From an uncultured Gammaproteobacteria bacterium (lineage in GTDB: Bacteria > Patescibacteriota > Patescibacteriia > Patescibacteriales > UBA12465), in assembly GCA_964587195.1 (NCBI GenBank), contig CAZPKN010000002.1, forward strand, positions 772-64,771: a stretch of 64,000 nt of DNA. The letters are read 5' to 3'. The notes under the pieces were generated by a model. It had not been told where the DNA came from. It was given only the letters and a program-made list of their open reading frames with translations, and searched no databases. A program made the position numbers and the translations under genes. Shown here in pieces: positions 1-58,867 of the stretch; position 1 is the stretch's first letter; each line of letters opens with the position of its first letter.

Positions 1-128
1 AAACCGCTAGCGGCGGTTCTAAATAATCGCAAAATAGCGCATTTATCTAGAATCGCTTTTTAACATAGTTTAATAACTGTGTGCTCATAATATTGACGGC
101 TTTTAAAGCCCTGTTTTAACTGTTAGTA

Positions 129-156
129 ATTATAGCGTTTTTAAAAATAATGTCAA
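129..156 (-). promoter_or_regulatory. sigma70-type promoter firing leftward (TTGACA-16-TATAAT)
   Basis: On the minus strand, TTGACA at 156-151 and TATAAT at 134-129. No ORF longer than ~13 codons lies between it and the window edge. Confidence 0.5.
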
Positions 157-172
157 GGGGGAGAATAAAAAC

Positions 173-202
173 AAAAAATACTAGAAATTACTAGTATTTT
201 TA
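173..202 (-). terminator. rho-independent terminator after pilT (bidirectional hairpin)
   Basis: Stem aatactag/ctagtatt (177-184 / 191-198), flanked by an A-run and a T-run. Confidence 0.7.
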
Positions 203-267
203 GGCAAAAAATCTATTAATAATAATCTTTTCAACAGCTTTATTAACAGGTCGCTGAAAGGCCCGCT

Positions 268-9511: not shown

Positions 9512-9892
9512 TTATTTGGAAATATCCAGAGTGTTAATTAATATTTTGTTTTCTAACTCCAAAATATCAGCGTCTTGATTACAAAAATATCGATAACGTT
9601 TATTAAAATCTGCTTCGTTATCGGCTATAAATAGATTTTCAATATTTTTAGATAAAACTTTTATCCGGTTAAGGTCCAATTCCGGATTTTCTGACTCCAA
9701 GTCTAAAGAGGTGATTATTTCTGAAAGCGTTCTTAGCCAACGAAAATCATCGTGATTAACTACTAATTGAAAATACTCATGATTATTGGAAATCGGGCCA
9801 TTCTTTTTTTCATAAATCCCTCTTTCGAGGTCTAATAATCTCTTATGAAAATCTAACAAGAGTTTTATTAAACTGTTCAATTTTTCTTTCAT
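9512..9892 (-). CDS. hypothetical protein
   Basis: 126-aa ORF with no recognisable motif. Confidence 0.4.
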   Translation of the reverse strand: MKEKLNSLIKLLLDFHKRLLDLERGIYEKKNGPISNNHEYFQLVVNHDDFRWLRTLSEIITSLDLESENPELDLNRIKVLSKNIENLFIADNEADFNKRYRYFCNQDADILELENKILINTLDISK

Positions 9893-9956
9893 ATTTGGAG
9901 TGGTTAATAATTAATTTTTATATTTTAGGTTATTTTTTTAAAAAAGTAAAAAGGAT

Positions 9957-9987
9957 AAAAAGAACTAGTTAGGCTAGTTCTTTTTTG
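9957..9987 (-). terminator. hairpin + U-run terminator after the tRNA-like element
   Basis: Stem agaactag/ctagttct (9961-9968 / 9974-9981), flanked by A- and T-runs. Confidence 0.65.
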
Positions 9988-9990
9988 ATT

Positions 9991-10190
9991 TGGAGCGGGT
10001 AACGGGAACCTGCCTGCCGGCAGGCAGGTTCCGCGCTCGCTTTTCTTCCGAAAAGCTCACTTGTCCAGAGTTGGCGTCCGATATGCCCCCGGCATATCGT
10101 CCGACATTCGTCTGCATCCTCGCCGCTCAAAATAGCGGCTCGGATTTGACTCATTTCCAACTAGTTCGATTCCCGTAATTATCCAAACAA
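9991..10190 (-). ncRNA. unclassified GC-rich structured RNA or miniature element ending in a tRNA-Gly-like 3' end with CCA
   Basis: 9993-10008 is identical to 10228-10243, which is the reverse complement of the tRNA-Gly T-stem 3' half plus acceptor 3' strand. There are four strong hairpins. GC content is far above the surroundings. There is no credible ORF. Confidence 0.45.
10005..10032. repeat. perfect 28-nt GC-rich palindrome (ggaacctgcctgcc/ggcaggcaggttcc)
   Basis: Read directly from the sequence. The core 20-mer recurs at 62764-62783 with 2 substitutions. Confidence 0.9.
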
Positions 10191-10193
10191 AAC

Positions 10194-10223
10194 AAAAAGA
10201 GATAGCAATGCTATCTCTTTTTG
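10194..10223 (-). terminator. hairpin + U-run directly after tRNA-Gly
   Basis: Stem agagatagc/gctatctct (10198-10206 / 10210-10218), flanked by A- and T-runs. Confidence 0.65.
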
Positions 10224-10228
10224 TTTTG

Positions 10229-10300
10229 AGCGGGTAACGGGAATCGAACCCGTCTCTCGACCTTGGCAAGGTCGCATAATAACCACTATACGATACCCGC
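10229..10300 (-). tRNA. tRNA-Gly (anticodon GCC)
   Basis: Cloverleaf folded by hand. Acceptor gcgggta/tacccgc, anticodon loop ttGCCaa, T-loop ttcgatt. CCA is not encoded. Confidence 0.9.
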
Positions 10301-10319
10301 AATCTTACTTTACGTTGGG

Positions 10320-10403
10320 TGCCGCGGGCGGGAATCGAACCCGCACTGTATCGCTACAACTGGATTTTAAGTCCAGCGCGTCTACCAGTTCCGCCACCGC
10401 GGC
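10320..10403 (-). tRNA. tRNA-Leu (anticodon UAA)
   Basis: 84 nt with a long variable arm. Acceptor gccgcgg/ccgcggc, anticodon loop ctTAAaa. Confidence 0.9.
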
Positions 10404-10407
10404 ATTG

Positions 10408-10795
10408 TGGAGATGATGGGAGTTGAACCCATGTCCAACCGGTTTTCCTAAATACATTTACAAGGGTAGATCGATTTATTTTGTTTAACTTTAACCATCA
10501 AAAACCGAACGAAAAGCGATTAAAGCGATCTTAATTTTGTTTCGAAATAATCCGTTAAGCGCAAATTATTTCTATCTTCAGTTAAAATGACACCGACGAA
10601 CCGTTATGAAGACTGGCGGCTAGTCGATGGTTACAGCCTTATTTATTAGGCCATAACTGGAGCATAACTTGGGGTTGCCCAAGTGAAAGCTCTTGCCGTT
10701 TTGGCATTTGTGTTTTTTTAGCCAGTTTAACGTGATTAACTAAGCACGCCTTGAATACCTAGAAAAAGATCCGACTGTCGATGCCTAGCATCCCC
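10408..10795 (-). ncRNA. ssrA: tmRNA (SsrA)
   Basis: The 5' end is GGGGATGCTAGGCATCGACAGTCGGATC. The 3' tRNA-like end is GGACATGGGTTCAACTCCCATCATCTCCA. It lies 10 nt downstream of smpB. The candidate tag frame ends ...TPSYAPVMA with TAATAA. Confidence 0.9.
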
Positions 10796-10805
10796 AGATA
10801 ATTTT

Positions 10806-11267
10806 CTACTTACCTCTTTTTGTTAACGAGCGCAGGCGCCGATCGACCTCCCGTTTCTTAATAGTTTCACGCTTATCATATTTCTTTTTACCCTTGGCGA
10901 CGGCGAACTCCAGCTTCAGAAAACTATGATTAGTATATATTTTCAAAGGGATAAGTGTCAAGCCTTCGGTCAGTTTCTTTCCTAATAAATGGTCAATTTC
11001 CCGTCTTTTCAGAAGCAGCTTACGCTCTCTTAAAGGATTATAATTTGGTAGCGGACCGGCGTTTTTATAAGGCGGAATCTGGCAATTAATTAAATATAGT
11101 TCCGGCTTCCCGTTTTTTGTTCTAATGCTAATAAAACTTCCTTTTAAACTAGCTTGTCCGGCTTTAACCGCTTTAACCTCAAAACCAAGCAAAACCAAGC
11201 CCGCCTCGTATTTATCGCGGACCTCATAATCAAAATTAGCTTTTTTGTTGTTCGCTAGCGCCGGCAT
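10806..11267 (-). CDS. smpB: SsrA-binding protein SmpB
   Basis: NKKANFDYEV motif, basic C-terminal tail, adjacent tmRNA. Confidence 0.9.
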   Translation of the reverse strand: MPALANNKKANFDYEVRDKYEAGLVLLGFEVKAVKAGQASLKGSFISIRTKNGKPELYLINCQIPPYKNAGPLPNYNPLRERKLLLKRREIDHLLGKKLTEGLTLIPLKIYTNHSFLKLEFAVAKGKKKYDKRETIKKREVDRRLRSLTKRGK

Positions 11268-17361: not shown

Positions 17362-17799
17362 CTATCTATCCCAAATCTGCGCATTATTATTAACCGCTCT
17401 GGTTATATACCTTAGAACGGCGGTAGTAATTAGCCAGGAAGTTAAAACAATCGCCAAACCGATAACGGCATCTTTAATCTGCGAGAGAGCTTTCTTGGTT
17501 TGGTCCTCATTGCCGGCTGAGGTCATATATCTAAACCCGGCGAAAACTAATAAAGAAACAAAAATTATTCCTAGTAAACCAAGAATGATTTTAATAATAT
17601 TAACGATAATAACCCTAATATCAGGGTTCTCCTCGCTCCAGCCAAAAGCCCTTTTCATATCCGATATTCCTTCTTGACTTTCGAATAAACTCTCGGTAGC
17701 AAAAGCTGATTGAGTGGAAAAACTGAAAATAGCAATCTGTAGTCCTCCCAACAACATCACTAGCAATAGAGATAGAAGATATTTTCGAGTCCGGGTCAT
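17362..17799 (-). CDS. small secreted two-TM protein, TrbC/VirB2-like (T4SS-pilin-like) topology
   Basis: Signal peptide ending SAFA, then two hydrophobic helices separated by a short polar loop (FRYMTSAGNEDQTKK). The call rests on topology and my recollection of a CPR pilin family. Confidence 0.45.
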   Translation of the reverse strand: MTRTRKYLLSLLLVMLLGGLQIAIFSFSTQSAFATESLFESQEGISDMKRAFGWSEENPDIRVIIVNIIKIILGLLGIIFVSLLVFAGFRYMTSAGNEDQTKKALSQIKDAVIGLAIVLTSWLITTAVLRYITRAVNNNAQIWDR

Positions 17800-31432: not shown

Positions 31433-33064
31433 TTAAGAATAAGCCTTCTTAATATAGTCATTTAAAACTCTATCCATATTAAAATAAGAAGCATTTAGGG
31501 CAATAGTTGCTCGCATCATTTTCAGCCATTTTTCCGGATAATGATAATAAAGGGGCAAGACTTTTTTTTCTAATGTTTCGTATAAGTCAGGCGCCTCATT
31601 AATAGTCCAGCCCGTTTTATTTTTAACATACCCTTCCGGCCACCAACCATCGAAGGTGCTAATTTGCATAATGCCGTTGTGAGCCGCTTTCATGCCGCTA
31701 GTGGCCGAGGCTTCATTGGGCAGGGCGGGATTGTTCAGCCAAACATCCGAACCGGAAACTAGAAGCTTCGCCATCTCTAAATCATAATTTTCCAAAAAAA
31801 CAATTTTTACTTCCGGAAAAAGTTGTTTAATTCTCTTATTTGTCTCGCTAATTAAAGTGCGTCCGATTTCGTCATCTGGATGAGCTTTACCAGCGTAGAT
31901 AATCTGAATAGGGCCGGATTTTTTATTTATTTCTTTTACTCTCTCTAAATCAGATAATAACATCGTCGGCCTTTTATAGGGGGCAAAACGGCGGGCAAAA
32001 GTTATAATTAGAGCTTCTTCAGAAAAATTAACTTTTTTCTGGCGGGCAATAAATTTAATTAATCTTTGCTTTGCCAATAGATGCGCCTGTTTAATTTCGC
32101 CTAAAGAAATACCGGCGGCTTTTTTGAGCTGGCGGTTATCTTGTCGCCAGTTAGGAATAAATTTATCAAATAAGGCGCTCATTTCCGGCGACACCCAAAA
32201 AGAAGATTCGACGCCGTTAGTAATAGCTTCAATATTGAAATCAGAAAACATTTCGCGAGAAACGCGACCATGTTTTTTAGATACGCCATTAGCATAAGAA
32301 CTAAAGAAAAGCGCTAATTTTGTAAAATTAACCGTATCATTTTCCATTATTTCTTTTATCTGCGTCGGAAAATCCGGCTGATACTTTAATAAAAATTCTC
32401 CGAAGAAAACGTCATGTCCGGCCGGAATAGGTGTATGGGTTGTAAAAACTAGTTTATCTCTAACTTCTTTTATTTTTTGCGCTTCACTGTCTTTTTTAGA
32501 ATTTAAAAACAACTCTACTCCAGCTAAAGCGCCGTGGCCCTCATTAAGATGGATTTTAGAAATTTTTTCTAAACCAAGTTTCTTTAAAAATTTAACCCCG
32601 CCCCGGCCGAGTAAAATTGCTTGCTTTAGTTTTTTACGTTTATCGCCGGGATATAAATTTTCACATAAACGACGATGTTTTTCACGATTCTCTGGCCAAT
32701 CGGTATCTAAGAAATAAATCGGTATTTTTAAACCATTATTATGTTGTAAGAAGTAGCGCCAAACTCTAAACAAAACTTTATCCGCACTAATATTTAAATA
32801 CATTTTCCCAGGCAGAAGCTCTAATTTTTTAAGATTACTTTTGTCGGCTTGCTCTTCTTGTTTTCCTTTAGGACTAATAACCTGTTTAAAATAACCATGC
32901 TTATTTAAAAGAGTTATCCCTATCATAGGAAATTTCCGACGAGAAGCGGCGCGCAAAATATCGCCCGCTAAAACTCCTAACCCGCCGGCATAAGTTTTTA
33001 AATCTTTTTCAAGAGCTATTTCCATACTGAAATAGGCGACCGATTGATTTATTTTTTTATTCAT
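31433..33064 (-). CDS. glgP: alpha-glucan (glycogen/maltodextrin) phosphorylase, GT35 short form
   Basis: PLP-lysine region EASATSGMKAAHNG. Confidence 0.8.
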   Translation of the reverse strand: MNKKINQSVAYFSMEIALEKDLKTYAGGLGVLAGDILRAASRRKFPMIGITLLNKHGYFKQVISPKGKQEEQADKSNLKKLELLPGKMYLNISADKVLFRVWRYFLQHNNGLKIPIYFLDTDWPENREKHRRLCENLYPGDKRKKLKQAILLGRGGVKFLKKLGLEKISKIHLNEGHGALAGVELFLNSKKDSEAQKIKEVRDKLVFTTHTPIPAGHDVFFGEFLLKYQPDFPTQIKEIMENDTVNFTKLALFFSSYANGVSKKHGRVSREMFSDFNIEAITNGVESSFWVSPEMSALFDKFIPNWRQDNRQLKKAAGISLGEIKQAHLLAKQRLIKFIARQKKVNFSEEALIITFARRFAPYKRPTMLLSDLERVKEINKKSGPIQIIYAGKAHPDDEIGRTLISETNKRIKQLFPEVKIVFLENYDLEMAKLLVSGSDVWLNNPALPNEASATSGMKAAHNGIMQISTFDGWWPEGYVKNKTGWTINEAPDLYETLEKKVLPLYYHYPEKWLKMMRATIALNASYFNMDRVLNDYIKKAYS

Positions 33065-33161
33065 AGTATTTGAGTAGAGATATTATTATAACATTTTTTT
33101 GACTTTATAAAAAATAAAAAAGAGCTCGGTTAAAAGCTCTTTTAAAAACAAGTTATAATTA

Positions 33162-33755
33162 TCACAGCCAGTCTTCGATAACTTTAAGTTCTTCTAATAA
33201 GCTATTGGAAGAATTTAAAACAATCGTTCCCGCTTGATTATTAACTACGTCCCAGACTGTTTTTTTAGAGACCGGAGTCTCGTCTGAATCAGGCGGCAAG
33301 ATTTGTTCCTTTAGCTCCAACTCCGCCCTTAGAAAATAACTGGCGGACATCTTTTTAAAGCCCTTTACATCTCCTGATAAATAAATGGAATATTTATCAG
33401 GTTTTTTTCCGGGAATGGTAAGATTCACTTCATTATTACCGTAAGCCTCATCTGCCTTTTTTTGCAGATTTTTTAAGCTGCTTACTAACGCAGAAATTTG
33501 CCCGTAATCTCTTTTCTCCAAATGGCTAATCAGCCCGTCAAGTCGATTAGTCCTCTGAAGCGGATAAATAATTTGGTAGAATCTGACGATTGCCTCCACC
33601 TTATTAGTCATAAAGTAGAGAGATCTCAAATTGGCTTGCAATTCATAAAGAAATTTTCTTTTTTCTCTTATGAACTTATAGTGCCCGGAAAAAAGACAAA
33701 CAATAAAGGCAATGATTTTTTTCATAACAATATATTTTATGAATAAGAGCAACAT
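33162..33755 (-). CDS. hypothetical N-terminally anchored protein
   Basis: ORF with one N-terminal TM helix. The true start is possibly Met11 at 33725. Confidence 0.4.
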   Translation of the reverse strand: MLLLFIKYIVMKKIIAFIVCLFSGHYKFIREKRKFLYELQANLRSLYFMTNKVEAIVRFYQIIYPLQRTNRLDGLISHLEKRDYGQISALVSSLKNLQKKADEAYGNNEVNLTIPGKKPDKYSIYLSGDVKGFKKMSASYFLRAELELKEQILPPDSDETPVSKKTVWDVVNNQAGTIVLNSSNSLLEELKVIEDWL

Positions 33756-33793
33756 GCTCTTGTTCTGGTTAATATTTCAAAGAACGATACTCT

Positions 33794-33822
33794 AATTTAG
33801 CTAATCATTGGATAATTGTCAA
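33794..33822 (-). promoter_or_regulatory. promoter, TTGACA-17-TAAATT
   Basis: On the minus strand, TTGACA at 33822-33817 and TAAATT at 33799-33794. Confidence 0.55.
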
Positions 33823-33825
33823 ATA

Positions 33826-33880
33826 GGCGCCTGATACAAAATCTAGAAATTTTTTTAATGGAATATTTGATAAATTGATA
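33826..33880 (-). repeat. cassette-boundary repeat copy D (tRNA-His 3'-end-like core ggcgcct + conserved arm)
   Basis: About 70-75% identity to 34527-34580 by hand alignment. Confidence 0.6.
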
Positions 33881-34007
33881 TAAAGAAGACCCACCTTGTT
33901 ATTGTGGGTCAAATATATTTTGAGAAATCTACTCTCTTAATCCCCTGGAAAAATCCAAAAGTTAAACGGAGCATTAAGTACTGTTAATCCGACAACATAG
34001 CCAACCC

Positions 34008-34283
34008 CTATTTATGATTTTTATAACACATTCTCCAAATTGCTGCAGCTGAAATAAACACACCAATGCCAATACATATACACCCAACAACCTTGTAATC
34101 TGTTTCTAGCAAAAATAAAACCCCAACAAATAAAATTAAAAGTGATTGGATTAGTATTATGAACCTGGTCTTTTTTCCACCATATTTAACATCCATAGGC
34201 ATCCTTCCTCCAGTGTAGTGACCTGGGGAATACATATTATTATTCCATTCCTTAAGATCATCAATATAACTTTTTTTAGACAT
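34008..34283 (-). CDS. hypothetical small 2-TM protein
   Basis: 91-aa ORF with two hydrophobic helices. Confidence 0.4.
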   Translation of the reverse strand: MSKKSYIDDLKEWNNNMYSPGHYTGGRMPMDVKYGGKKTRFIILIQSLLILFVGVLFLLETDYKVVGCICIGIGVFISAAAIWRMCYKNHK

Positions 34284-34484
34284 ATTTTGTTGTAGATTAT
34301 ATATAGCAGAACATAAACCTTGTTTAATCTTCTATTTAATCCTCAATTAGCTGCTTTTCTTCTTAATAATGTCTTAACGAATTTATTATTTATTATTTTC
34401 TTGTCTCTTTGCACAACTTTTAGTTTGACCTATAATCAATTAAATTATATCATTCTAACCGTAAAGCTCAACTTCACACCCTAC

Positions 34485-34580
34485 ATCAAAGAAAAACGAG
34501 CTTTTAGACTTGTCTTTTCCAAATGGGGTGGCTAAGCACAAAACTTGGAAAACTTTTTTAATAGAATATTTGGTAAATTA
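34485..34580 (-). repeat. cassette-boundary repeat copy A (arm + tRNA-His 3'-end-like core + decayed copy of the tRNA-His trailer/terminator)
   Basis: 34485-34524 is about 80% identical to the tRNA-His trailer at 35431-35470. 34525-34580 is about 77% identical to copy B. Confidence 0.7.
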
Positions 34581-34582
34581 TC

Positions 34583-34942
34583 CTAATTAATCATCCCTCT
34601 ACAACTTTGACTGCCACAATTACATTTTGAGCCAGGATCCAAGTAAAAAGATGTTATTTCTTCTCCTGATTTAATATCTCTTGTGGCCACATCGGACTTA
34701 TTTATAGATTTAGTATTTGGGTCACATGAATGATTAACAAATTTTTCTGGCGATTGCATCAAGAAGTAATTTCCATCCTGATTCATTAAATACTGATTAT
34801 TTTCTTTTGTTAAATCTTCGAATTCTTTTTTACTAATTATTTTTGGGTGCCACAAGATTACCACCTCTCCTTTTTTAAAATCACGAGCAGCAAAAACCCC
34901 TTTATTATTTATTTTTGACTTTTTTATAACGATGTTTTCCAT
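34583..34942 (-). CDS. SET-domain protein (putative protein-lysine methyltransferase)
   Basis: NHSCDPN, EEITSFY, and a Cys-rich post-SET CNCGSQSCRG. Confidence 0.75.
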   Translation of the reverse strand: MENIVIKKSKINNKGVFAARDFKKGEVVILWHPKIISKKEFEDLTKENNQYLMNQDGNYFLMQSPEKFVNHSCDPNTKSINKSDVATRDIKSGEEITSFYLDPGSKCNCGSQSCRGMIN

Positions 34943-34948
34943 TTAATA

Positions 34949-34957
34949 ATTATAACA
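34949..34957 (-). promoter_or_regulatory. extended -10 element (TGtTATAAT) 6 nt upstream of the SET ATG
   Basis: The minus strand reads aaaaTGtTATAATtattaaATG. This implies a leaderless or near-leaderless mRNA. Confidence 0.5.
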
Positions 34958-35029
34958 TTTTTAATTTAGTTTGCCTTCCCATCATGGCTAAAACAAAAAT
35001 AACCCCAAAAAATGGGGTTATTTTTATAT

Positions 35030-35078
35030 GGGTGGCTAATCGAAAAACTTGGCAAACTTTTTTGATGGATTATTTAGT
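35030..35078 (-). repeat. cassette-boundary repeat copy B (arm + tRNA-His 3'-end-like core gggtggcta)
   Basis: The first 10 nt of the compared core (gggtggctaa, 35030-35039) are identical to copy A at 34526-34535, and the arm is about 77% identical. It overlaps the stop of the 35070 gene. Confidence 0.7.
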
Positions 35079-35360
35079 TACTTTTTTAACAGACAAATAA
35101 ATTGCTGTAATAATAGCTACAAAAAAAGAGATAAATGAAATAGCACCTGTTGTCAGACAAAAGTATAGGTCATATCCTGAATAACAATGAGACAAAAGAG
35201 ACTGCAGTACTGTGTCGTCGCAAGGATTGAATCTATTAATTATGGCTCCTATGCTAGGCATTTCATTACTGACAAGAACATACATTAATAGAAATAACAA
35301 GCTAATCAGAATAGAAATTTTAAACGTTTTGTTGTTACACAGCTTTTTAAGTAATTGCAT
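35070..35360 (-). CDS. hypothetical small Cys-containing membrane protein
   Basis: 96-aa ORF with two hydrophobic helices. Confidence 0.4.
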   Translation of the reverse strand: MQLLKKLCNNKTFKISILISLLFLLMYVLVSNEMPSIGAIINRFNPCDDTVLQSLLSHCYSGYDLYFCLTTGAISFISFFVAIITAIYLSVKKVTK

Positions 35361-35435
35361 AATTTAAAGATTATTTATATCTTACTAAACTATAACAAAA
35401 TATTTTGTAAAACTCAATTTTATATCTTATATCAA

Positions 35436-35460
35436 AGAAAAAACGAGCCTGAAAGCTCAT
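35436..35460 (-). terminator. terminator after tRNA-His
   Basis: Minus-strand stem augagc/gcucgu followed by a U-run. Confidence 0.6.
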
Positions 35461-35473
35461 CTTTTCAAAAGGG

Positions 35474-35545
35474 GGTGCCTAGAGAGAATCGAACTCTCGC
35501 TAGCTGGACCACAACCAGCCGTTCTACCATTAAACTATAGGCACC
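35474..35545 (-). tRNA. tRNA-His (anticodon GUG) with encoded G-1
   Basis: Acceptor gtgccta/taggcac preceded by an extra G. Anticodon loop ttGTGgt. Confidence 0.9.
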
Positions 35546-35554
35546 ATACTTTAT

Positions 35555-36037
35555 TTATATTTTTTCATTAAAATTATGAACCAAAAAATGACAATTCCAA
35601 CACAGCCAAACTAAATTACTAATATCATTATTCTTTCTATTGTGATCTTTATGATGAATTAGTAAGACTCTTCTATCCTTCATCCCACACAATACACATA
35701 AGGGGGTAACTTTATTTTCCTTCATTATTCTATGGTAAGTAAACTCCCCTCCGCGCCAATTAATATGTCTATTACCTATGTATTTTTTATTTCTCCAAAC
35801 CGTCTGACATGTTTTACTACAAAAAAATTTGCCACTTTTAGAATGTTTTAAGTCCTTTTGAGTCTTCCAAGCCTCCTTACCACACACATCACAGGCAATA
35901 AATTTACCAGTTTTTTGACCTTCATACTGACAAATAGTTGAACAAAATTTGCCATAACCCCTTTTTAATTGACTAGGCTTAGCATAAAACTCTTTACTAC
36001 AAATTTTACATTTAACGTTTGGCATATGTAATGCCAT
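35555..36037 (-). CDS. HNH endonuclease with two N-terminal zinc-ribbon repeats
   Basis: HHKDHNRKNNDISNLVWLCWNCH, plus duplicated C-x2-C...C-x3-C units. The ORF-track start at 36064 is a TTG, so I use the first ATG at 36037. Confidence 0.75.
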   Translation of the reverse strand: MALHMPNVKCKICSKEFYAKPSQLKRGYGKFCSTICQYEGQKTGKFIACDVCGKEAWKTQKDLKHSKSGKFFCSKTCQTVWRNKKYIGNRHINWRGGEFTYHRIMKENKVTPLCVLCGMKDRRVLLIHHKDHNRKNNDISNLVWLCWNCHFLVHNFNEKI

Positions 36038-36089
36038 TGTATTGTGAAACAACCCAGTTGTCAACCATTAACACATCAACCTTAAGACG

Positions 36090-36161
36090 TACGCCCGGGG
36101 GGAATCGAACCCTCATTAAGAGCTTAGAAGGCTCCCGTTCTATCCATTGAACTACGGGCGC
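36090..36161 (-). tRNA. tRNA-Arg (anticodon UCU)
   Basis: Hand-folded cloverleaf with anticodon loop ctTCTaa. There is one A-C mismatch in the T stem and a G1-U72 pair. Confidence 0.8.
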
Positions 36162-36206
36162 AAATTAAAAACCAATTCTAAATAAATAGGAATCGATTCT
36201 GGTTTT

Positions 36207-36235
36207 ATACTAATAAAAATACTGCCTTCTGTCAA
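36207..36235 (-). promoter_or_regulatory. promoter of the tRNA-Arg/HNH/tRNA-His unit, TTGACA-17-TAGTAT
   Basis: On the minus strand, TTGACA at 36235-36230 and TAGTAT at 36212-36207. Confidence 0.6.
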
Positions 36236-36236
36236 C

Positions 36237-37022
36237 TTAACCATTTCTTTGCCTAACTGCCTCATAAATGAGAATAGCAGCTGAAACTGATACATTTAGG
36301 GAGTCCATCCCTTTAGTCATTGGTATTTTTACCAACTTATCCGCCGCTTTAAGCCAATTAGCACTTAGCCCGTCAGCCTCTGATCCAAGAACTATAGCCG
36401 CTGATTTTTTGAGGTTCGCCTTAATATAATTGATTTTTCCGGTTGTAGCGGCGGCATAACTAACTATCTTGTTATTTGTTAACCAGGTGGTTGTTTCTTG
36501 AAAAGAGGTGCTAACTATCTTTTGTTTAAAAATAAAACCCTCGCTTGCCCGGATAACATTGGGGTTATAGATATCCGTTTGATTATCGTTGATAATTATT
36601 AAATCAACTCCGGCCGCATATGATGTTCTTATTATCGCCCCTAAATTACCCGGTTTCTCTATATTCTCCAAGATAACTATAAGGGGGTTTTTATTCAATT
36701 TAACGTTCGCTAGTGTCTTAGAATTGGTCTTGATTAAGGCCAAGCAACCATCAGGATTCTCTTTATAACTAATCTTTCTAAAAGCAGCTTCGGAAACTTC
36801 ACAAACAAGATCAGTGTTGATTTTGAGCTGTTTAAAATTATGATTTTTGTCTAAAGATTGACAAAAGAAAAGCTCTTTGATTTCTAAACCCGATTCTAAA
36901 GCTGATAGTGTTTCCCGAAAGCCATCAACCAAAAAAACTCCTTGCTCTTTTCTAGCACTAGCCTTTTTCAATTTAACCAACTCTTTAATTTTTTTATTAT
37001 CCACACTATCAATCTTATTCAT
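36237..37022 (-). CDS. TrmH/SpoU-family RNA 2'-O-methyltransferase
   Basis: LGSEADGLS and IPMTKGMDSLNVSVSAAILIYE motifs. Confidence 0.8.
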   Translation of the reverse strand: MNKIDSVDNKKIKELVKLKKASARKEQGVFLVDGFRETLSALESGLEIKELFFCQSLDKNHNFKQLKINTDLVCEVSEAAFRKISYKENPDGCLALIKTNSKTLANVKLNKNPLIVILENIEKPGNLGAIIRTSYAAGVDLIIINDNQTDIYNPNVIRASEGFIFKQKIVSTSFQETTTWLTNNKIVSYAAATTGKINYIKANLKKSAAIVLGSEADGLSANWLKAADKLVKIPMTKGMDSLNVSVSAAILIYEAVRQRNG

Positions 37023-37102
37023 AAAACAATAATAGTTATTTTATAAAAATTCTAAAAACTTCGGTTTTCTGATATAATAATTCTATCTTAATAATATATT
37101 TT

Positions 37103-39961
37103 ATGCCAATTCCTCAATTAAAACCCCGCCGAAGCGTCTCCTGGAAGGAAAATCACTCCTCCCTCAAGAAAACAGCCTCGCCTAATTATTCCCGAAAAAA
37201 AGCTAAAAAACAACTAAAAACAACTTTAGTAAAAATCGCTCTATACCTAGTGGCCTTTTTTGCTTTAATCACCCTAATTACCATGTTATGGCTTTCTCGA
37301 GACCTGCCAAACCCTAATCAGTTAATGGAAAGAGAGGTCGCTCAAAGTACTAAAATTTACGACCGAACAGGGGAAAACATTATTTATGAAATTAGTGGTG
37401 AACAGCGACGCACTCTAATTAAATTAGAAGATCTGCCAGACTATGTGAAGAATGCTACTATTGCCATTGAGGATAAGAATTTTTATAAGCATGGCGGCTT
37501 CAGTATTTGGGCAATGTTTAGAACAGCGATCACTAATGTAATTTATAGACGCAGCGCCGGCGGCTCAACTCTTACCCAACAATTTATTAAAAATGCCGTC
37601 TTAACTAATGAGAAAAAAATTAGCCGTAAATTAAAAGAACTGATTCTTGCCTATCGTCTAGAACAAAAATTTTCCAAAGATGAAATACTACAGATGTACC
37701 TTAATGAAATCCCTTATGGTTCTAACGCTTATGGAGTAGAAGCAGCCAGTCAAAAATATTTCGGCAAAAGTAGCCGTGACCTAACAATTGCTGAAGCCGC
37801 CACCTTAGCCGCTCTAACTCAATCACCTAGTCGTTACTCTCCATATGGACCGAATAAAGATATTCTCTTAGGAAGAAAAGATTATGTCTTAGACTTAATG
37901 ACTGAACAAGGATATATTTCTGAAGAAGAACGAGACGCAGCTAAAGAAGAAGAGTTGTCTTTTAAAGGACGTGACAATAATATGATTGCTCCTCACTTCG
38001 TCATGTATATTAAGGGACTCCTTTCAGAAAAATATGGAGAGAAAACCGTCGAACAAGGCGGATTAAAAATTTATACAACCCTTGATCTTTATAAGCAACA
38101 AATTGCCGAAGAAATAATTACTGAAAAAACTAAAGACTATCCCCAAAAATACAATGCGAGCAATGCTGCTTTAATTTCTATTGATCCAAAAACTGGAGAA
38201 GTTTTAGCGATGGTGGGTTCGCGTGATTATTTTGACGATTCTATAGACGGGCAAGTTAACGTAACCATTCGTCCTCGCCAACCAGGATCATCAATGAAAC
38301 CGATTGTCTACGCGGCCTTATTTGAAAAAGGCTACACTCCAAATACCTTGCTTTACGACGTAATAACTAATTTTTCAACCAACCCAGCTGATCCATACAC
38401 CCCAAAAAATTATGATGGATCTGAGCGCGGCCCAGTTACTATTCGGCAAGCTCTCGCTGGATCTTTAAATATCCCCGCTGTTAAAGCTATTTATTTAGCT
38501 GATATTAATAATGTCCTTGATTTGGCTGATAATATGGGTTACACGACTTTAACTCAACGTAATCGTTTTGGACTCGCTTTAGTTTTAGGCGGTGGTGAAG
38601 TTAAAATGATAGAACATGTTAATGCTTACAGCGCCTTCGCTCGCGATGGACAAGTTAACTCAATAATTAGCATTCTCAAAGTTGAAGATAAAGATGGAAA
38701 AACTTTAGAGGAAAACAAGCCAGTTGAGAAGAAGGTTTTAAGCTCACAGGTCGCCCGAATGATTAATAGCGTCCTGAGCGACAATGAAGCCCGCTCTTAC
38801 GTCTTTGGTGCTAAAAACTATCTAACCCTCGGTAATCGACCGGTAGCGGCTAAAACAGGAACTACTAATAACTTCCATGACGCCTGGACGATTGGCTACA
38901 CCCCCTCACTAGTAACCGGGGTCTGGGTTGGAAATAGCAATAATAAGCCGATGACTGGAAAAGCTGATGGTAGCGTCGTAGCCGCTCCAATTTGGCAAGA
39001 ATTCATGTCTAAGGTTCTTGGGGATACACCAGTAGAATCGTTTAAGGAACCTGATGATTATACAACCGGCAAGGCGGTTTTAGATGGAGAGTTAGACTAT
39101 ACTAATATCCAAATTGATAAAGAAACGGGACTATTGGCTTCTCCGGAAACACCTTTAGAAAATTTAGAAGATGTTTCTATTCCTAGACACCACAGCATAC
39201 TTTTTCACGTTAATAAAGATGATCCTCGCGGAGAAAAACCATCTAATCCAGAAAATGACCCTCAATTTTCTATCTGGGAAGAAGCTATAAAAAAATGGGC
39301 AGAAAAAAATTCCACCTCATCAATTTCTCTACCAGATGGCTACGACGAGAGAAATAATGAAGATAATAAACCAACCATTAAAATAATTAGCCCGGCTAAT
39401 AACAGCATTGTTGATAGCACCTTATTAGAAATATCTCTAGAATCAGAGGCCAAGCGCGGAATTTCGCGGACAGATTATTATTTAAATAATGTTCTATGGC
39501 AAACAAAAACTGGCGAGAACAAATTATTAACCACTTATCTCCCCCCGCTTAATAATGGCTACCAAAAACTTAAAGTCCGAGTTTGCGATGATGTTCAAAA
39601 CTGTTCTATTCATGAAGTTAATTTTAATCTACTCATTAAGGACAACCCCGTTTCAAACAGTAAAAACTATCTATCACTAGTCTCCCCACATTCCGGAATT
39701 GCTGTTAACCAGCAAGACTTCCCCCTAACAATTACTTTTAGTTTACCTGCTCCCGGTCGAGCCGCCCAAATAAAATTATTTCAAAAAAATTCATCAGGAG
39801 AAATAAAACAATTAACTAGCCTAAGTAATAATATTAATTTTCAAAATTCTCTAGAATGGGTTAACCCTGGGGCAACAGGAACTTACCAAATTTTTGGTGA
39901 GTTGTATGACTGGAACGGTGATGTTATAAAAAGTGAAGAAATAAGCGCTATTGTAAACTAA
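37103..39961 (+). CDS. class A penicillin-binding protein (PBP1A type) with a long C-terminal extension
   Basis: GT51 motifs EDKNFYKHGGF and GGSTLTQQ. Transpeptidase motifs SSMKP (SxxK) and KTGTT. About 250 extra C-terminal residues. Confidence 0.9.
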   Translation: MPIPQLKPRRSVSWKENHSSLKKTASPNYSRKKAKKQLKTTLVKIALYLVAFFALITLITMLWLSRDLPNPNQLMEREVAQSTKIYDRTGENIIYEISGEQRRTLIKLEDLPDYVKNATIAIEDKNFYKHGGFSIWAMFRTAITNVIYRRSAGGSTLTQQFIKNAVLTNEKKISRKLKELILAYRLEQKFSKDEILQMYLNEIPYGSNAYGVEAASQKYFGKSSRDLTIAEAATLAALTQSPSRYSPYGPNKDILLGRKDYVLDLMTEQGYISEEERDAAKEEELSFKGRDNNMIAPHFVMYIKGLLSEKYGEKTVEQGGLKIYTTLDLYKQQIAEEIITEKTKDYPQKYNASNAALISIDPKTGEVLAMVGSRDYFDDSIDGQVNVTIRPRQPGSSMKPIVYAALFEKGYTPNTLLYDVITNFSTNPADPYTPKNYDGSERGPVTIRQALAGSLNIPAVKAIYLADINNVLDLADNMGYTTLTQRNRFGLALVLGGGEVKMIEHVNAYSAFARDGQVNSIISILKVEDKDGKTLEENKPVEKKVLSSQVARMINSVLSDNEARSYVFGAKNYLTLGNRPVAAKTGTTNNFHDAWTIGYTPSLVTGVWVGNSNNKPMTGKADGSVVAAPIWQEFMSKVLGDTPVESFKEPDDYTTGKAVLDGELDYTNIQIDKETGLLASPETPLENLEDVSIPRHHSILFHVNKDDPRGEKPSNPENDPQFSIWEEAIKKWAEKNSTSSISLPDGYDERNNEDNKPTIKIISPANNSIVDSTLLEISLESEAKRGISRTDYYLNNVLWQTKTGENKLLTTYLPPLNNGYQKLKVRVCDDVQNCSIHEVNFNLLIKDNPVSNSKNYLSLVSPHSGIAVNQQDFPLTITFSLPAPGRAAQIKLFQKNSSGEIKQLTSLSNNINFQNSLEWVNPGATGTYQIFGELYDWNGDVIKSEEISAIVN

Positions 39962-40037: not shown

Positions 40038-41165
40038 CTATTGTCTAATCGGCATAACTATATAAAGATAACTATCATCTTTTTCTGGTCTAACCACACA
40101 AGGGGTCATATTATTTAAAACACTAAGGCGGACAAAGCTTCCCTCTATATTATTTAAACCATCAAGCAAATAACGATAATTAATAGTAACTTCATTATCA
40201 TCACCATTAACCTCGCATTCTAATTCAACTTGGCTCTCCCCGCTAGTCCCGGAAAATGACGAAACTAATAGTTTAGACTTAGAAAAGATAAGAGTAATAT
40301 CATTTATTCCCGCCTTAGAGAATAAAGCGGCCGCCTTAACCGCTCTAATCAACTCACCTCTTTCCACTAAAATATTAGTTTGGCTTTTACTAGGAATAAT
40401 CTGCTTATAATCAGGGTAGTGTCCGTTTATCAGACGAGAAATTAATTCAACAGAATCAAAAGTGAATAGTATTTGATTATCTGACAAATAAAAATTTATT
40501 TCCGCCGCTTGCCCATCAATCTCATCTTCAAAATTATTCAGAATTCTAAGTAATTCTTGAATGGTTTTAGCGGGAACAATAATTTTTTGTTCCTCATCCT
40601 TAAAACCATTTCTTTTTACCTTAATTTCCTTCTCCGCTAATCTGTAACTATCCGTTGCCGCTAAAAATAGTTGTTCACCAATAAAAGAAAACAATACTCC
40701 AGTTAGCTCAGCCCTGTTTTCACTACTAGAAACAGCAAACACTACACTATTTAAAGATTTTCTAAGCTCTTTAAGATTACAGGAAAAATAATTATCACGA
40801 GAAATACTAGGAATAAGGGGGTAGTCCTTAGCCGACTCCCCTTTTATTTTTGTTTTATAATTTCCACACTCAATACTAAGATCATCACCCTTTAAATCAA
40901 CTTTAACCTTTTCTCCACTACTTAATAATCCAATATATTCATTTATTAACTTAGAATCGACCGTAAACTCTCCCTCTTCCTCAACCTTACCCCTTATTTG
41001 ATGGTTTATACCTATTTCTAAGTTTGTGCTAATAAACTCTATCGTCGAAGACTTAGCTTTTATTAGGATATTATTTAGGATTGGTAAATTAATATTTTTA
41101 GAACTAACGTGTCCAGTGATGTTTAATCCTCTTTTCAAGTTTTCCTGCAGACTAATGAATTTCAT
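40038..41165 (-). CDS. dnaN: DNA polymerase III beta sliding clamp
   Basis: 375 aa, three-domain clamp length, located immediately downstream of dnaA. Confidence 0.85.
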   Translation of the reverse strand: MKFISLQENLKRGLNITGHVSSKNINLPILNNILIKAKSSTIEFISTNLEIGINHQIRGKVEEEGEFTVDSKLINEYIGLLSSGEKVKVDLKGDDLSIECGNYKTKIKGESAKDYPLIPSISRDNYFSCNLKELRKSLNSVVFAVSSSENRAELTGVLFSFIGEQLFLAATDSYRLAEKEIKVKRNGFKDEEQKIIVPAKTIQELLRILNNFEDEIDGQAAEINFYLSDNQILFTFDSVELISRLINGHYPDYKQIIPSKSQTNILVERGELIRAVKAAALFSKAGINDITLIFSKSKLLVSSFSGTSGESQVELECEVNGDDNEVTINYRYLLDGLNNIEGSFVRLSVLNNMTPCVVRPEKDDSYLYIVMPIRQ

Positions 41166-43842: not shown

Positions 43843-44592
43843 ATGGGCAATTTTTTTACAGCCATTTTTTATCAGCCGATTCTTAACCTTTTGGTTTTCT
43901 TATATAATACGGTTTCTTTTCAGGATTTAGGAGTCGCTATTATTCTCTTAACGGTTATTATTAAGGCGATTCTCTGGCCTTTTGGTAAACAATCAATTAA
44001 ATCTCAAAAAGCCCTTCAAGAGCTCCAGCCGAAACTTGATGAATTGAAGAAACAATACGGCGACGACAAGGTCGGTTTAAGTCGGGCGACCATGGATTTA
44101 TATAAAGAAAGTAAGATCAATCCCCTTTCTTCTTGTTTTCCTCTTTTAATTCAACTCCCGTTTCTATTTGCAGTTTATCGAGTATTTAGAGATGGACTAA
44201 ATAATAAGTTAGATTTAGTTTATTCCTTCATCCATAAGCCGGAAGTTATCCAAGGAATGTTTTTAGGATTCTTAGATCTTAATAAGCCAAATATTTATTT
44301 AGCAGTTTTAGCCGGTCTAGCTCAGTTTTGGCAGGCAAAAATGATGTCGACTAAAAAACCGGTTATAAAAACAGACGGTTCAAAGGACGAAAGTATGACG
44401 GCTATTATGAATAAGCAGATGTTATACTTTATGCCGGCGATTACTGTTTTTATTGGAGCCTCTTTGCCGGGCGGCTTAACTCTTTATTGGTTTATAATTA
44501 CGCTTTTAACTGCTCTGCAACAAGTACTTATTTTTAAGAATATTGATAAAAACAAGAAAGAAGTAAAGACTGTTGAAGGAGAAATTATTTAA
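43843..44592 (+). CDS. yidC: membrane protein insertase YidC (short form)
   Basis: Conserved C-terminal TM region LPGGLTLYWFIITLLTALQQ. Confidence 0.85.
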   Translation: MGNFFTAIFYQPILNLLVFLYNTVSFQDLGVAIILLTVIIKAILWPFGKQSIKSQKALQELQPKLDELKKQYGDDKVGLSRATMDLYKESKINPLSSCFPLLIQLPFLFAVYRVFRDGLNNKLDLVYSFIHKPEVIQGMFLGFLDLNKPNIYLAVLAGLAQFWQAKMMSTKKPVIKTDGSKDESMTAIMNKQMLYFMPAITVFIGASLPGGLTLYWFIITLLTALQQVLIFKNIDKNKKEVKTVEGEII

Positions 44593-57721: not shown

Positions 57722-58867
57722 TTAATTGAGGCGGTAATTTAATCCATCGCTTTTAACTATCCCGCGCAATTCTAATATACTTAGTGTACTATTTATGACC
57801 GCTGTGTCAAGTTGACTAATTTGCATAATTTCTTCGCCGCTAATTAATTCTCCTTGTGTGCCAGCCTTATTTAATAACTCTAAAATTGTTTTTTCGATAT
57901 TATTTTCAAAGCATAAAATGGGATTTTTAATATTTTCTTGAGAAGTAATTGGATTCTTATCGGTTAAATTATAAACTTCTAAGATGTCACTCTCGCTCGT
58001 GACTAATTTTGCGCCGGATTTTAATAAATTGTTCACGCCGCCAGATAATGATGAAAAAATATTGCCCGGGACGGCCAAAACTTCGCGATTCTGCTCTAAA
58101 GCACGAGCGGCGGTAATTAAAGAGCCGGATTTTTCTTGGGCTTGAATAATTAAAGTTGCCTGACAGAGACCGGAGATAATACGATTTCTTCTGGGGAAAT
58201 TTTGTGGCCGACCTATAGTTCCAGGCGGAAATTCAGACAATAATAAGCCAGATTGATTAATAATTTTTTCAGCAATCGGCCAATTACTGCGCGGATAAAA
58301 AGAATCTTTATCAAGACCGGTTCCTAAAATCGCGATTGTTTGCCCGTAGTTTTCTAAGGTTGTTTGATGCGCGAGGGAGTCTATCCCTAGCGCCAACCCG
58401 CTGACAATTTGAATTCCTCGAGAAACCACCCCCGGCAGGAGATTATTGATAACTCTCTCTCCGTAGCTATCCGGCTCTCGTGAGCCGACTATTGCTAAAC
58501 GATTATTATCATCATGTAACAATTTAATATTACCTTTATAGTATAAAACTAGCGGCGGAGAAGATATTTCTTTTAGTAGTTCGGGATAAGATTCATCGCT
58601 TAAAGAAATAAAATTAATTTTTTCTTGCTCTAGCTTATTAAAAATAGCTTGAAAATCAAAAGTATTCCGCCAGGCGATAAAATCAGCGCTAATTTTCTCA
58701 CCTAATCCGGCTATCAGCAGGTTATTAAGGGTAGCATTAAAAATCTCAAGGTAACTGCCAAAGTAGCCTTTAAGTTTTTTAATACTTTTAAAGCCTAGTT
58801 TGTCGAAACAATTAAAACCCAAGAGAGCTTCGCGGTCGGTTTTAATGAAAAAAATGAAATTATTCAT
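57722..58867 (-). CDS. dprA: DNA-processing protein DprA
   Basis: Rossmann-like core GLALGIDSLAHQ and the classic dprA-topA pairing. Confidence 0.85.
   Translation of the reverse strand: MNNFIFFIKTDREALLGFNCFDKLGFKSIKKLKGYFGSYLEIFNATLNNLLIAGLGEKISADFIAWRNTFDFQAIFNKLEQEKINFISLSDESYPELLKEISSPPLVLYYKGNIKLLHDDNNRLAIVGSREPDSYGERVINNLLPGVVSRGIQIVSGLALGIDSLAHQTTLENYGQTIAILGTGLDKDSFYPRSNWPIAEKIINQSGLLLSEFPPGTIGRPQNFPRRNRIISGLCQATLIIQAQEKSGSLITAARALEQNREVLAVPGNIFSSLSGGVNNLLKSGAKLVTSESDILEVYNLTDKNPITSQENIKNPILCFENNIEKTILELLNKAGTQGELISGEEIMQISQLDTAVINSTLSILELRGIVKSDGLNYRLN

Follow-up and report, generated by a model that had tools for sequence, protein, structure and literature searches.

The 64-kb stretch of DNA analysed here (the window; 64,000 nucleotides of contig CAZPKN010000002.1) carries a tandem array of three small gene cassettes directly behind a tRNA-His(GTG) gene. 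Both the tRNA and the cassettes lie on the minus strand: in gene orientation the tRNA ends ..CTAGGCACCC, and three units, each composed of a leader, an open reading frame (ORF) and a conserved repeat with its core (hereafter ARM), then run leftwards. Cassettes are described in gene orientation throughout, from the leader through the cargo gene or genes to a 56-nt ARM with the terminal core TTAGCCACCC(CA). As the initial annotation of the window had proposed, the repeats split the region into one-gene units; these measure ~434-442, 504 and 700 bp and hold one minus-strand ORF each (Table 1). The cargo of cassette 1 (ORF96) has no significant Pfam match, that of cassette 2 is a putative lysine methyltransferase of the SET type, and that of cassette 3 (ORF91) gives a weak DUF202 match below the Pfam threshold. 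At a related locus (L032, 928-1542), an ORF96-like gene stands directly upstream of an ORF91 homologue without an ARM between them, and ORF91 with its 60-nt upstream region there matches the window at 86.5% identity. In cassette 3, the 160 nt of non-coding sequence at 34284-34443 may be the residue of an upstream gene, lost here and kept in L032.

The ARM consists of ~45 nt, AATTTACCAAATATTCCATYAAAAAAGTTTKCCAAGTTTTGCG, followed by the core MTTAGCCACCC(CA), ~56 nt in total. Searched with an nhmmer profile of related copies, the window yields three ARMs and no more; each is on the minus strand, within this region and at the position first assigned to it. A repeat finder independently returned one family of 54 nt, its copies placed at 33823, 34526 and 35030. 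ARM A and ARM B are 81% identical over 54 nt without gaps, with a local (Smith-Waterman) score of 58 compared to 22.9 ± 2.7 in shuffled sequences. The ARM A/ARM D score of 48 (25 ± 3.3 in shuffles) was reached by 1 of 200 shuffles, making this pair alone weaker evidence. In addition, a degenerate 21-mer of the arm matches three times in the window against 0.08 matches expected by chance; the shuffle scores and this count together set the arm similarity above the AT-rich background. The cores had been read as decayed tRNA-His 3′ ends. Only copy D is in fact decayed, and the core TTAGCCACCC(CA) is a conserved part of the element itself: it stays constant in genomes where the local tRNA-His ends ..CAGCTACCC or ..GGGCACCC, and is therefore element-borne and no copy of the local tRNA. 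A derivation of the whole ARM from a decayed tRNA body was also considered and rejected, hand alignment giving no similarity outside the ~10-nt core. Another strain (L003) has an ARM of likewise 31 bits at the ARM D position, and directly past ARM D in the window lies the promoter of a 187-aa ORF (33822 to 33794; promoter scan).

The leaders fall into two classes. Type 1, which opens cassettes 1 and 3, comprises a terminator GA(C/T)GAG..CTCGTTTTTT followed by a promoter-like site; type 2, which opens cassette 2, combines a different terminator (AACCCCA..TGGGGTT) with a promoter region, and recurs in many loci, after tRNA-His or after ARMs. The duplicate of the tRNA trailer that was noticed initially is real and longer than first described, pairing 34461-34534 with 35407-35481 at ~76-77% identity over 75 nt (score 46 against 23.9 ± 2.9 in shuffles). 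Hairpin and T-run motifs resembling the one at 33888-33910 stand before many ARMs.

Table 1. Features of the tRNA-His cassette array and its surroundings in the window
Feature	Position	Strand	Evidence and remarks
tRNA-His(GTG)	35471-35545	minus	ARAGORN; Rfam 35474-35544, 66 bits
Left half of attB/attL (tRNA-His 3′ end)	35471-35482	plus-strand sequence GGGGGTGCCTAG	Crossover zone CACCC; placed by the att quartet of L010 and the window
Type-1 leader, cassette 1	35361-35470	minus	Terminator 35466 to 35437; promoter-like site 35417 to 35389 (terminator/promoter scan)
Cassette 1 cargo: 96-aa Cys-rich membrane protein (ORF96)	35070-35360	minus	ORF list
ARM B + core (..GATTAGCCACCCA)	35029-35083	minus	nhmmer 55 bits, E 1e-15; 81% identical to ARM A; L010 junction falls here
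Type-2 leader, cassette 2	34943-35028	minus	Hairpin AACCCCAAAAAATGGGGTT at 35001-35019 and promoter region; read from sequence
Cassette 2 cargo: 119-aa SET-domain protein	34583-34942	minus	Pfam SET, E 3e-15
ARM A + core (..GCTTAGCCACCCC)	34525-34580	minus	nhmmer 61 bits, E 1e-17
Type-1 leader, cassette 3	34444-34524	minus	Degenerate terminator; promoter-like site 34471 to 34444; trailer duplicate of the initial annotation
Cassette 3 cargo: 91-aa protein (ORF91), two predicted transmembrane segments	34008-34283	minus	ORF list
Terminator-like hairpin GACCCACAATAACAAGGTGGGTC	33888-33910	minus	Between ORF91 and ARM D; read from sequence
ARM D + decayed core (..ATCAGGCGCCTA)	33826-33877	minus	nhmmer 31 bits, E 3e-8; distal end of the array
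HNH/zinc-finger ORF	35555-36064	minus	Between tRNA-Arg (36089-36161) and tRNA-His; second variable slot
dnaN	40038-41165		
dnaA	41429-42844		
YidC	43843-44592		

Contigs encoding an identical SET protein reveal three arrangements of the array, most contigs being identical to the window. One contig (L010, from SRR8925806) joins window position 35473 to position 35038, reading ..tctctaggcaccc up to the junction and atataaaaataacccc beyond it; in this contig the 434-bp ORF96 cassette (window 35039-35472) is missing, and tRNA-His is followed at once by the SET cassette with its type-2 leader. Two others (L003 from SRR27460156 and L007 from SRR27460153) have one unit more, of 697 bp, located between the SET cassette and the ORF91 cassette; it is made up of a type-1 leader, a 145-aa ORF (ORF145) and an ARM, with 118-bp ARM-plus-leader repeats on either side. 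Presence/absence differences between strains, anticipated by the initial annotation, are therefore exact at the core, L010 lacking one cassette and L003 and L007 carrying one more. The empty site, attB, can be read from L010 as ..TCTCTAGGCACCC/ATATAAAAATAACCCC, where the slash marks the junction; the window supplies attL as ..TCTCTAGGCACCC/CCTTTTGAAAAG and attR as ..GATTAGCCACCC/ATATAAAAATAACCCC, the right half of attB and attR being also written ATATAAAAAT. Because these three sites share only CACCC, the crossover is placed inside that stretch. ARM B closes cassette 1 on the right; it corresponds to the P half of attP and here makes an attR-type junction, and ARM A with the type-1 leader that follows it is an attP-like junction. 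With attP inferred from such ARM–leader junctions, the sites form a reconstructible quartet around a short shared core, as in elements of large serine recombinases (LSRs).

The same architecture recurs well beyond the window. A pattern in IUPAC code that covers all local copies retrieved 17 loci in GTDB species representatives and 23 in JGI/ENA metagenomes. The resulting ~40 ARM-bearing contigs, most of them labelled Patescibacteria, hold 68 ARMs that score 45 bits or more, 52 of them distinct; these are roughly 90-95% identical and nearly invariant at most positions. Their hosts are divergent: relative to the window, SpoU is 45-62% and PBP1A 57-61% identical, and tRNA-His differs at ~13-22 of 75 positions. 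Wherever the contig is long enough the array lies near dnaA/dnaN and the order is constant, namely PBP1A on the opposite strand, a SpoU-type methyltransferase, tRNA-Arg(TCT), a variable slot, tRNA-His(GTG) and then the cassettes, which number from one to at least five and all lie on one strand; one contig probably has seven, as counted from two possibly overlapping stretches (L037 and L039). The 50 units that were measured span 280-6612 bp, with a median of ~690 bp. The arm copies are thus clearly neither confined to the window nor part of one fixed arrangement. At many loci (L022, L023, L032-L036, L042-L046, L052 and others) an ARM lies within a few hundred bases of the end of the stretch, which for several (e.g. 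L022, L034/L038, L042, L044, L052) is the end of the contig; assemblies may be systematically broken at this hypervariable locus, and its cargo is probably under-sampled in metagenome-assembled genomes (MAGs).

Individual cassettes are shared between these species. The ORF145 cassette is the third unit in L003, which belongs to the species of the window, and the first unit in L030, directly after a clearly different tRNA-His and in a species with a SpoU of 48% identity. Only 3 of ~700 positions distinguish the two copies (99.6% identity), and the tract of identity begins at CACCCCA/TTTGG and ends at the next ..CCACCCCA, such that its borders are the cores. Other cassettes common to loci at different positions encode a 121-aa membrane protein, a 261/281-aa methyltransferase, a GNAT protein, a 73-aa protein and a DUF5677 protein. 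The one-cassette steps between strains and the shared 99.6% cassette are indirect evidence that the small unit itself moves. Pfam scanning of 64 distinct cassette proteins identified four GNAT acetyltransferases, two DUF5677 and two HNH proteins; SMC/AAA-type ATPases, an EcoRI-type methylase, GmrSD, AbiEi/AbiEii, Fic, SET and methyltransferase families; and toxin–antitoxin and restriction–modification components, along with many small membrane or unknown proteins. No recombinase family appears in the Pfam summary for these 64. In L071, the final visible cassette (original coordinates 55-640, minus strand) encodes a 171-aa protein ending ..NCNCGSKNCRGFIN, which resembles the end of the window SET protein (..KCNCGSQSCRGMIN); SET-domain cargo may, to judge from these termini, be recurrent in such arrays. 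We also considered, and rejected, the ARM as a C-terminal tag of cargo proteins: read-through into it occurs in one cargo ORF only, and the frames differ. Contig look-ups with ORF96 and ORF91 for a circular junction or more variants gave nothing new.

A recombinase was found at the same site in other genomes. Specifically, stretch L038, from the same contig of a GTDB representative as L034, starts inside tRNA-His and continues through a type-1 leader. On its minus strand it encodes a complete LSR (start MDKYYSYYRVSS) with zinc ribbon and coiled coil, whose frame has no stop through the leader and on into the antisense of the tRNA. Beside the LSR are a 247-aa serine recombinase (Pfam Resolvase, E 1e-33, and a partial Recombinase domain), an AAA_25 ATPase and six more ORFs; the first ARM lies 9.9 kb from the tRNA, followed in the same array by two cargo-only cassettes. 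A database search returned 56 LSR homologues, 35 of them at 40% identity or more, with lengths of 465-547 aa and, in nearly all, the domains PF00239, PF07508 and PF13408 (Resolvase, Recombinase and Zn_ribbon_recom). The LSR matches a PHROG integrase (E 7e-73), and the closest solved structures are generic serine-recombinase catalytic domains only. Two homologue-bearing contigs (L070 and L071) have dnaA, dnaN, PBP1A, SpoU, tRNA-Arg and tRNA-His as in the window, and next after the LSR come again the 247-aa recombinase and the AAA_25 protein (PHROG primase/helicase matches), then small unknown ORFs and, on the other strand, defence-like cargo. An ARM in L071 (59.7 bits) stands 9.95 kb from the tRNA, and the L038 and L071 elements both end in an ARM; the far end of the L070 element lies outside the retrieved stretch. 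The catalytic, Recombinase and zinc-ribbon/coiled-coil domains of a full LSR are thus present in L038, L070 and L071 and missing from the window. Of the two recombinase types first suggested as candidates, the serine type was found and the tyrosine type was not, among the ORFs examined. Searches of IMG/VR with three ARM patterns and one leader pattern, and of GenBank phages and PLSDB plasmids by BLAST with ARM plus leader, gave no match. Remoter LSR relatives (P0046-P0054, 26-30% identity) have ends that look like tRNA-antisense translations (..GLEPTT.., ..GRDSNP..), and judging by these ends there may be a wider LSR clade with genes crossing tRNA attachment sites other than tRNA-His.

The window retains traces of the LSR gene. 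The common C-terminus of the homologues, WQTxFLxLYxRKNE(L/P)xxSSF(P/Q)xGV, is the antisense translation of the type-1 leader, and in 18 of the 56 a motif search shows the protein reading on into antisense tRNA (..GNRT..); these are therefore derived from integrated copies. In tblastn, residues 462-510 of homologue P0018 match window 35409-35555 on the plus strand (63% identity, E 3.6e-11) and residues 470-486 of P0001 match 34486-34536 on the same strand (76% identity, E 0.003); on both counts the tRNA trailer and its duplicate are two LSR 3′-end relics. A plus-strand ORF of the window (35355-35540) reads ..TQFYILYQRKNEPESSSFQKGVPRENRT, as set against the LSR C-termini. The type-1 leader of cassette 1, read in antisense, is accordingly what is left of the last ~25 LSR codons and corresponds to the P′ half of attP. 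Where an ARM adjoins a type-1 leader, the antisense frame can be followed without interruption across the ARM in 12 or more loci, reading ..SSFPNGVA(K/N)(R/H)KTWKTFLMEYLVN, and its stop lies on the distal ARM edge; at ARM A of the window it reads ..SFPNGVAKHKTWKTFLIEYLVN. Variability of the ARM by antisense codon position is 0.139 at position 3, 0.102 at position 1 and 0.066 at position 2, a pattern that fits partial shaping of the ARM sequence by coding constraint. The window cassettes thus keep att halves with the recombinase gone, as non-autonomous derivatives do: the ARM corresponds to the far end of the L038 and L071 elements, and the type-1 leader to the LSR 3′ end.

Conservation of this kind might also be expected if the ARM were a functional RNA or regulatory element (a 3′-UTR motif, small RNA or operator) and the cassette pattern incidental, and the position of the ARM, always between gene end and terminator, would suit such a role. 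We give this practically no credence: an Rfam scan of 32000-38000 at E <= 1 gave two tRNAs only, no stable fold is predicted, many ARMs lie past the cargo gene's own terminator, and neither the exact indel borders at the core nor the continuity of the LSR frame would be explained. DnaA boxes, dif/Xer sites and IS200/IS605-type ends, considered from sequence only, were likewise rejected; spacing and symmetry do not fit, and the link to the LSR explains the site. The layout of small, mostly one-gene, same-strand cassettes, each ending in a conserved repeat of ~56 nt and carrying cargo typical of integron cassettes (GNAT, toxin–antitoxin and small unknown proteins), invites comparison with an integron, in which the ARM would act as an attC site folded as a single strand, tRNA-His as attI, and a tyrosine integron integrase as the enzyme. 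However, the ARM and ARM plus leader fold no better than shuffles as single-stranded DNA (z-scores of -0.3 and +1.5 for the two strands of the ARM), so the attC assignment was rejected; no intI is adjacent, and the ORFs examined in the window and beside arrays include no tyrosine recombinase; conservation of the ARM is at the level of sequence rather than of hairpin structure; the cassettes have their own terminators and promoters; and the linked enzyme is a serine recombinase. An integron of this kind is exceedingly improbable. Nor does the locus resemble a tyrosine-integrase tRNA island, given that no such integrase was found and that the tRNA-end match is 5-9 nt compared to the typical 15 nt or more.

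The repeats and their conservation across species, the polymorphism between strains, the relics of the LSR and the complete elements in the same place lead us to favour, with fairly high confidence, the explanation that the window array consists of three recombinase-less miniature integrative cassettes, derived from LSR elements and stacked at the tRNA-His 3′ end. The initial annotation offered two alternatives, which are here supported as parts of a single explanation: successive insertion of tRNA-3′-end-targeting cassettes with tandem accretion agrees with the core-exact polymorphism, the shared 99.6% cassette and the ~40 contigs, and cargo-only remnants of larger integrative elements agree with the LSR 3′-end relics and the ~10 kb elements at the same site in L038, L070 and L071. 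The parent would be an integrative element of ~10 kb encoding an LSR (~490-550 aa), the second, 247-aa serine recombinase and the helicase-like AAA_25 ATPase. Its LSR gene abuts the att site with a frame that crosses it, the last ~25 codons corresponding to the antisense of the type-1 leader (the P′ half), which doubles as a terminator for the tRNA. In the integrated state the LSR frame continues into the tRNA-His antisense; in the excised circle it would pass through the ARM antisense (the P half) to give ..GVAKRKTWKTFLMEYLVN, with a stop at the far edge of the ARM. The ARM would thereby supply the last ~17 residues of the recombinase in the circle, and integration would swap in a tail from the tRNA antisense. 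Cargo-only cassettes would be deletion derivatives retaining the two attP halves around a cargo gene. Cassettes 1 and 3 retain both P (ARM) and P′ (type-1 leader), and an LSR acting in trans could therefore insert cassettes at the tRNA-His core (CACCC) and excise them. New insertions beside the tRNA would push older cassettes outward, in keeping with the farthest copy, ARM D, being the most decayed, and homologous recombination between the conserved junctions of ~120-150 nt would add shuffling and deletions. We infer that an LSR catalyses cassette movement by mobilisation in trans and that it accepts the occupied tRNA–leader junction as a target; the change of C-terminal tail would also serve a function.

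It could instead be that the small units never moved, and that full LSR elements integrated repeatedly and were each deleted down in place, leaving the ARMs and leaders as dead attR and attL debris. The leaders as LSR pseudogene fragments, the decay of ARM D to 31 bits and the window without a recombinase all accord with such scars. They would hardly account for the 697-bp ORF145 cassette, present with the same borders and at 99.6% identity at different positions in two species whose core proteins are ~50-60% identical, for several other minimal cassettes common to different species, for conservation of the ARM far above that of neutral debris, or for same-species strains that differ by exact one-cassette steps. 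We consider immobile scars very unlikely.

Several observations weigh against the derivation of the array from LSR elements mobilised in trans. No excised circle or attP junction was directly observed. As stated from the outset, the window has no integrase: tblastn with seven LSRs and Pfam/NCBIfam searches found no LSR gene in the 64 kb and only relics of ~17-50 codons, and no recombinase was identified by Pfam or NCBIfam in 29 mid-size or unannotated ORFs, those above ~400 aa being checked by LSR tblastn only. Mobilisation here therefore needs a helper, and none was seen in the organism. The ARM-encoded tail occurs in none of the database LSRs. About half of the cassettes open with a type-2 leader, which shows no LSR relic and is not accounted for by the LSR derivation. 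Canonical large serine integrases recombine only attP with attB, and stacking at an occupied site (the tRNA–leader junction, formally attL) would call for a less strict choice of site or for a different route. A Patescibacteria host is at odds with several MAG labels (Gammaproteobacteria, Bacilli), although these labels may be binning or naming errors, because synteny at the loci is the same. Lastly, a cassette pair shared by L031 and L033 is near-identical (99%) over a tract bounded inside the leader and inside the ARM, not at the core; ordinary homologous recombination between conserved junctions therefore also reshuffles arrays. Among the array-flanking ORFs of ~300-375 aa, inspection by eye recognised DnaN, CysK, an IS481-like transposase or nothing recognisable, and no recombinase. 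The transposase-like ORF (L051, 1969-2853, minus strand; 294 aa, by eye of the IS481/IS3 DDE type) lies just past the last ARM of its array and is the only classical transposase noticed near any array.

The L031/L033 breakpoints raise the question of whether homologous recombination alone could suffice, with the ARM–leader junctions of 120-150 nt as portable blocks of homology for RecA exchange after natural transformation, and no site-specific recombinase acting today. The extra cassette of L003 sits between 118-bp repeats, a length sufficient for such exchange. In addition, identity between the window and L003 is 99.2% from tRNA-Arg through the SET cassette and falls, with a boundary exactly at the array, to 88.6% over the ORF91 cassette, ARM D and the 187-aa ORF (window 33000-34580, L003 2263-3851), as from a recombination tract; on this comparison, the tRNA-proximal part looks to have been recently exchanged between otherwise diverged strains. 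The window also encodes two proteins of competence type, a PilB/PilT-type ATPase (268-1323) and DprA (57722-58867), and a type IV secretion system (T4SS) pilin-like protein (17362-17799), compatible with a capacity for DNA uptake and recombination in this organism. However, the tRNA-side junctions share only 5-9 nt with the ARM, yet the loss of ORF96 in L010 and the presence of ORF145 in L030 are exact there, and exchange alone leaves unexplained both a 56-nt ARM kept at 90-95% across very divergent hosts and leaders that are LSR gene relics. As the whole explanation homologous recombination is therefore improbable, if the least so of the rivals; recombination between junctions clearly contributes, probably as a process secondary to the LSR-based insertion that we favour.

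The array lies in a region of low G+C (0.30-0.31 over 34-36 kb, compared to ~0.37 elsewhere in the window) and is flanked by SpoU, PBP1A, DnaN and CysK. From the coordinates of dnaN, dnaA and YidC, and a turn in cumulative GC skew near 40-44 kb, it is placed ~5-8 kb from the likely replication origin. Its transcription runs on the minus strand, leftwards from the origin region, as for most ORFs left of the array. Between tRNA-Arg and tRNA-His, other species have a 12-22 nt spacer only, a 176-aa unannotated protein or a 58-62-aa Lys-rich protein; the last of these ends ..GCDCSxCxHHCG. No ARM-like repeat marks this second variable slot. The HNH gene that occupies it in the window, first singled out as the only nuclease nearby, turns out to be irrelevant: the slot is empty or filled with unrelated genes in other species, an HNH gene there is specific to the window species, and a role as nuclease or recombinase of the system was rejected. 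Elsewhere in the window, ARAGORN places a transfer-messenger RNA (tmRNA) at 10407-10795 (minus strand), adjoined by SmpB at 10806-11267; a second, permuted call (tmRNA*, 9878-10500, minus strand) overlaps tRNA-Gly and tRNA-Leu and looks like a false positive.

Patescibacteria, or the candidate phyla radiation (CPR), have tiny genomes with few recognised mobile elements, and their gene exchange is poorly understood. The tRNA-His 3′ end looks like a gene-swapping site common to many distantly related species, and the locus offers a concrete, recurrent route of gene flow in CPR: at one conserved site beside the replication origin, species with ~50-60% core-protein identity exchange sub-kilobase segments encoding defence, toxin–antitoxin, acetyltransferase, methyltransferase and small membrane proteins. 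Full-text literature searches combining Patescibacteria or CPR with cassettes, integrons, serine recombinases and genomic islands found no description of such a system, and a 2025 survey of horizontal transfer in Patescibacteria leaves tRNA sites and recombinases unmentioned. We tentatively suggest, as a possibility worth entertaining, that tRNA-His near oriC in Patescibacteria hosts an undescribed, integron-like capture platform, in which mini-cassettes built from the split ends of an LSR gene pass between species and the LSR tail rewritten on integration acts as a switch of direction or activity. For testing, the recombinase family (P0001-P0035), the 56-nt site and the target are all now defined. 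If the tail swap matters, a serine integrase would have a novel means of detecting that it is integrated, and compact LSR/att pairs that target a tRNA are attractive for genome engineering. As a simple marker, the ARM profile can also point to hypervariable cargo in CPR metagenomes, where many retrieved contigs end at or near arrays and cargo may be under-assembled.

Among known systems, the composite islands of staphylococcal cassette chromosome (SCC) and pseudo-SCC (ψSCC) elements and the accretion of cis-mobilizable elements (CIMEs) appear to be the closest in layout and logic, and the likeness to integrons one of appearance only. SCC and SCCmec integrate by LSRs, often the paired ccrA/ccrB, at the 3′ end of a housekeeping gene near oriC, and carry a replicative-helicase-like gene. 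In SCC arrays short direct repeats delimit tandem units, among them ccr-less ψSCC cassettes that were presumably moved in trans. The tRNA-His system shares paired serine recombinases, a helicase-like gene, a gene 3′ end near oriC as target and recombinase-less tandem cassettes. It differs in that the cassettes are 0.3-2 kb with one gene rather than 3-60 kb, that the repeat is a 56-nt ARM rather than an integration site sequence (ISS) of ~15-20 bp, that the recombinase gene itself spans att, and that the hosts are Patescibacteria. In place of the ccr family and the rlmH/orfX 3′ end that define SCC, the target is tRNA-His, and the likeness is one of layout and mechanism. An SCC-related island has been described (PMC10581047). 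CIMEs keep attL and attR, have lost their recombination genes, and accrete in tandem with integrative and conjugative or integrative and mobilizable elements (PMC5704250; ICEberg 2.0, PMC6323972). In both cases non-autonomous units gather in tandem with an autonomous element at one site, or replace it; CIMEs, however, measure kilobases and come from conjugative elements that usually have a tyrosine integrase, whereas the units here are miniature, LSR-derived and common to very divergent species.

Two further systems share the choice of a small-RNA target. The ssrA-specific islands of Dehalococcoides integrate site-specifically at the tmRNA 3′ end (PMC3146451). A small-RNA 3′ end is again the target and tandem islands are marked by repeated gene 3′ ends, but the islands are multi-gene and tens of kb in size, and their repeats are true copies of the ssrA end (~20 bp) with no element-borne ARM. 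Their ssrA-site integrase is presumably a serine recombinase, and to our knowledge no single-gene cassette arrays have been described among them. The tycheposons of Prochlorococcus are tRNA-targeting integrative elements of streamlined genomes (bioRxiv 10.1101/2020.12.28.424599). Unlike the elements at tRNA-His, they lack a conserved ARM serving at the same time as a recombinase gene's 3′ end. Tycheposons reportedly accumulate by tandem integration into variable islands, with partial tRNA repeats left behind, and some are cargo-only; their recombinases are said to be mainly of the tyrosine type and the elements larger. In integron arrays, small, mostly single-gene cassettes on one strand end in recombination-site-like repeats, with the newest cassette beside a fixed anchor. 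Cassette layout, cargo classes and a fixed anchor recur at tRNA-His, although here there is no IntI, the ARM lacks an attC hairpin, the cassettes have their own promoters and terminators, and the anchor is a tRNA. Overall, site-specific integrative elements with non-autonomous derivatives are well known, and it is the mini-cassette size, the conservation across species and a recombinase gene that spans its own att site that are unusual at this locus.

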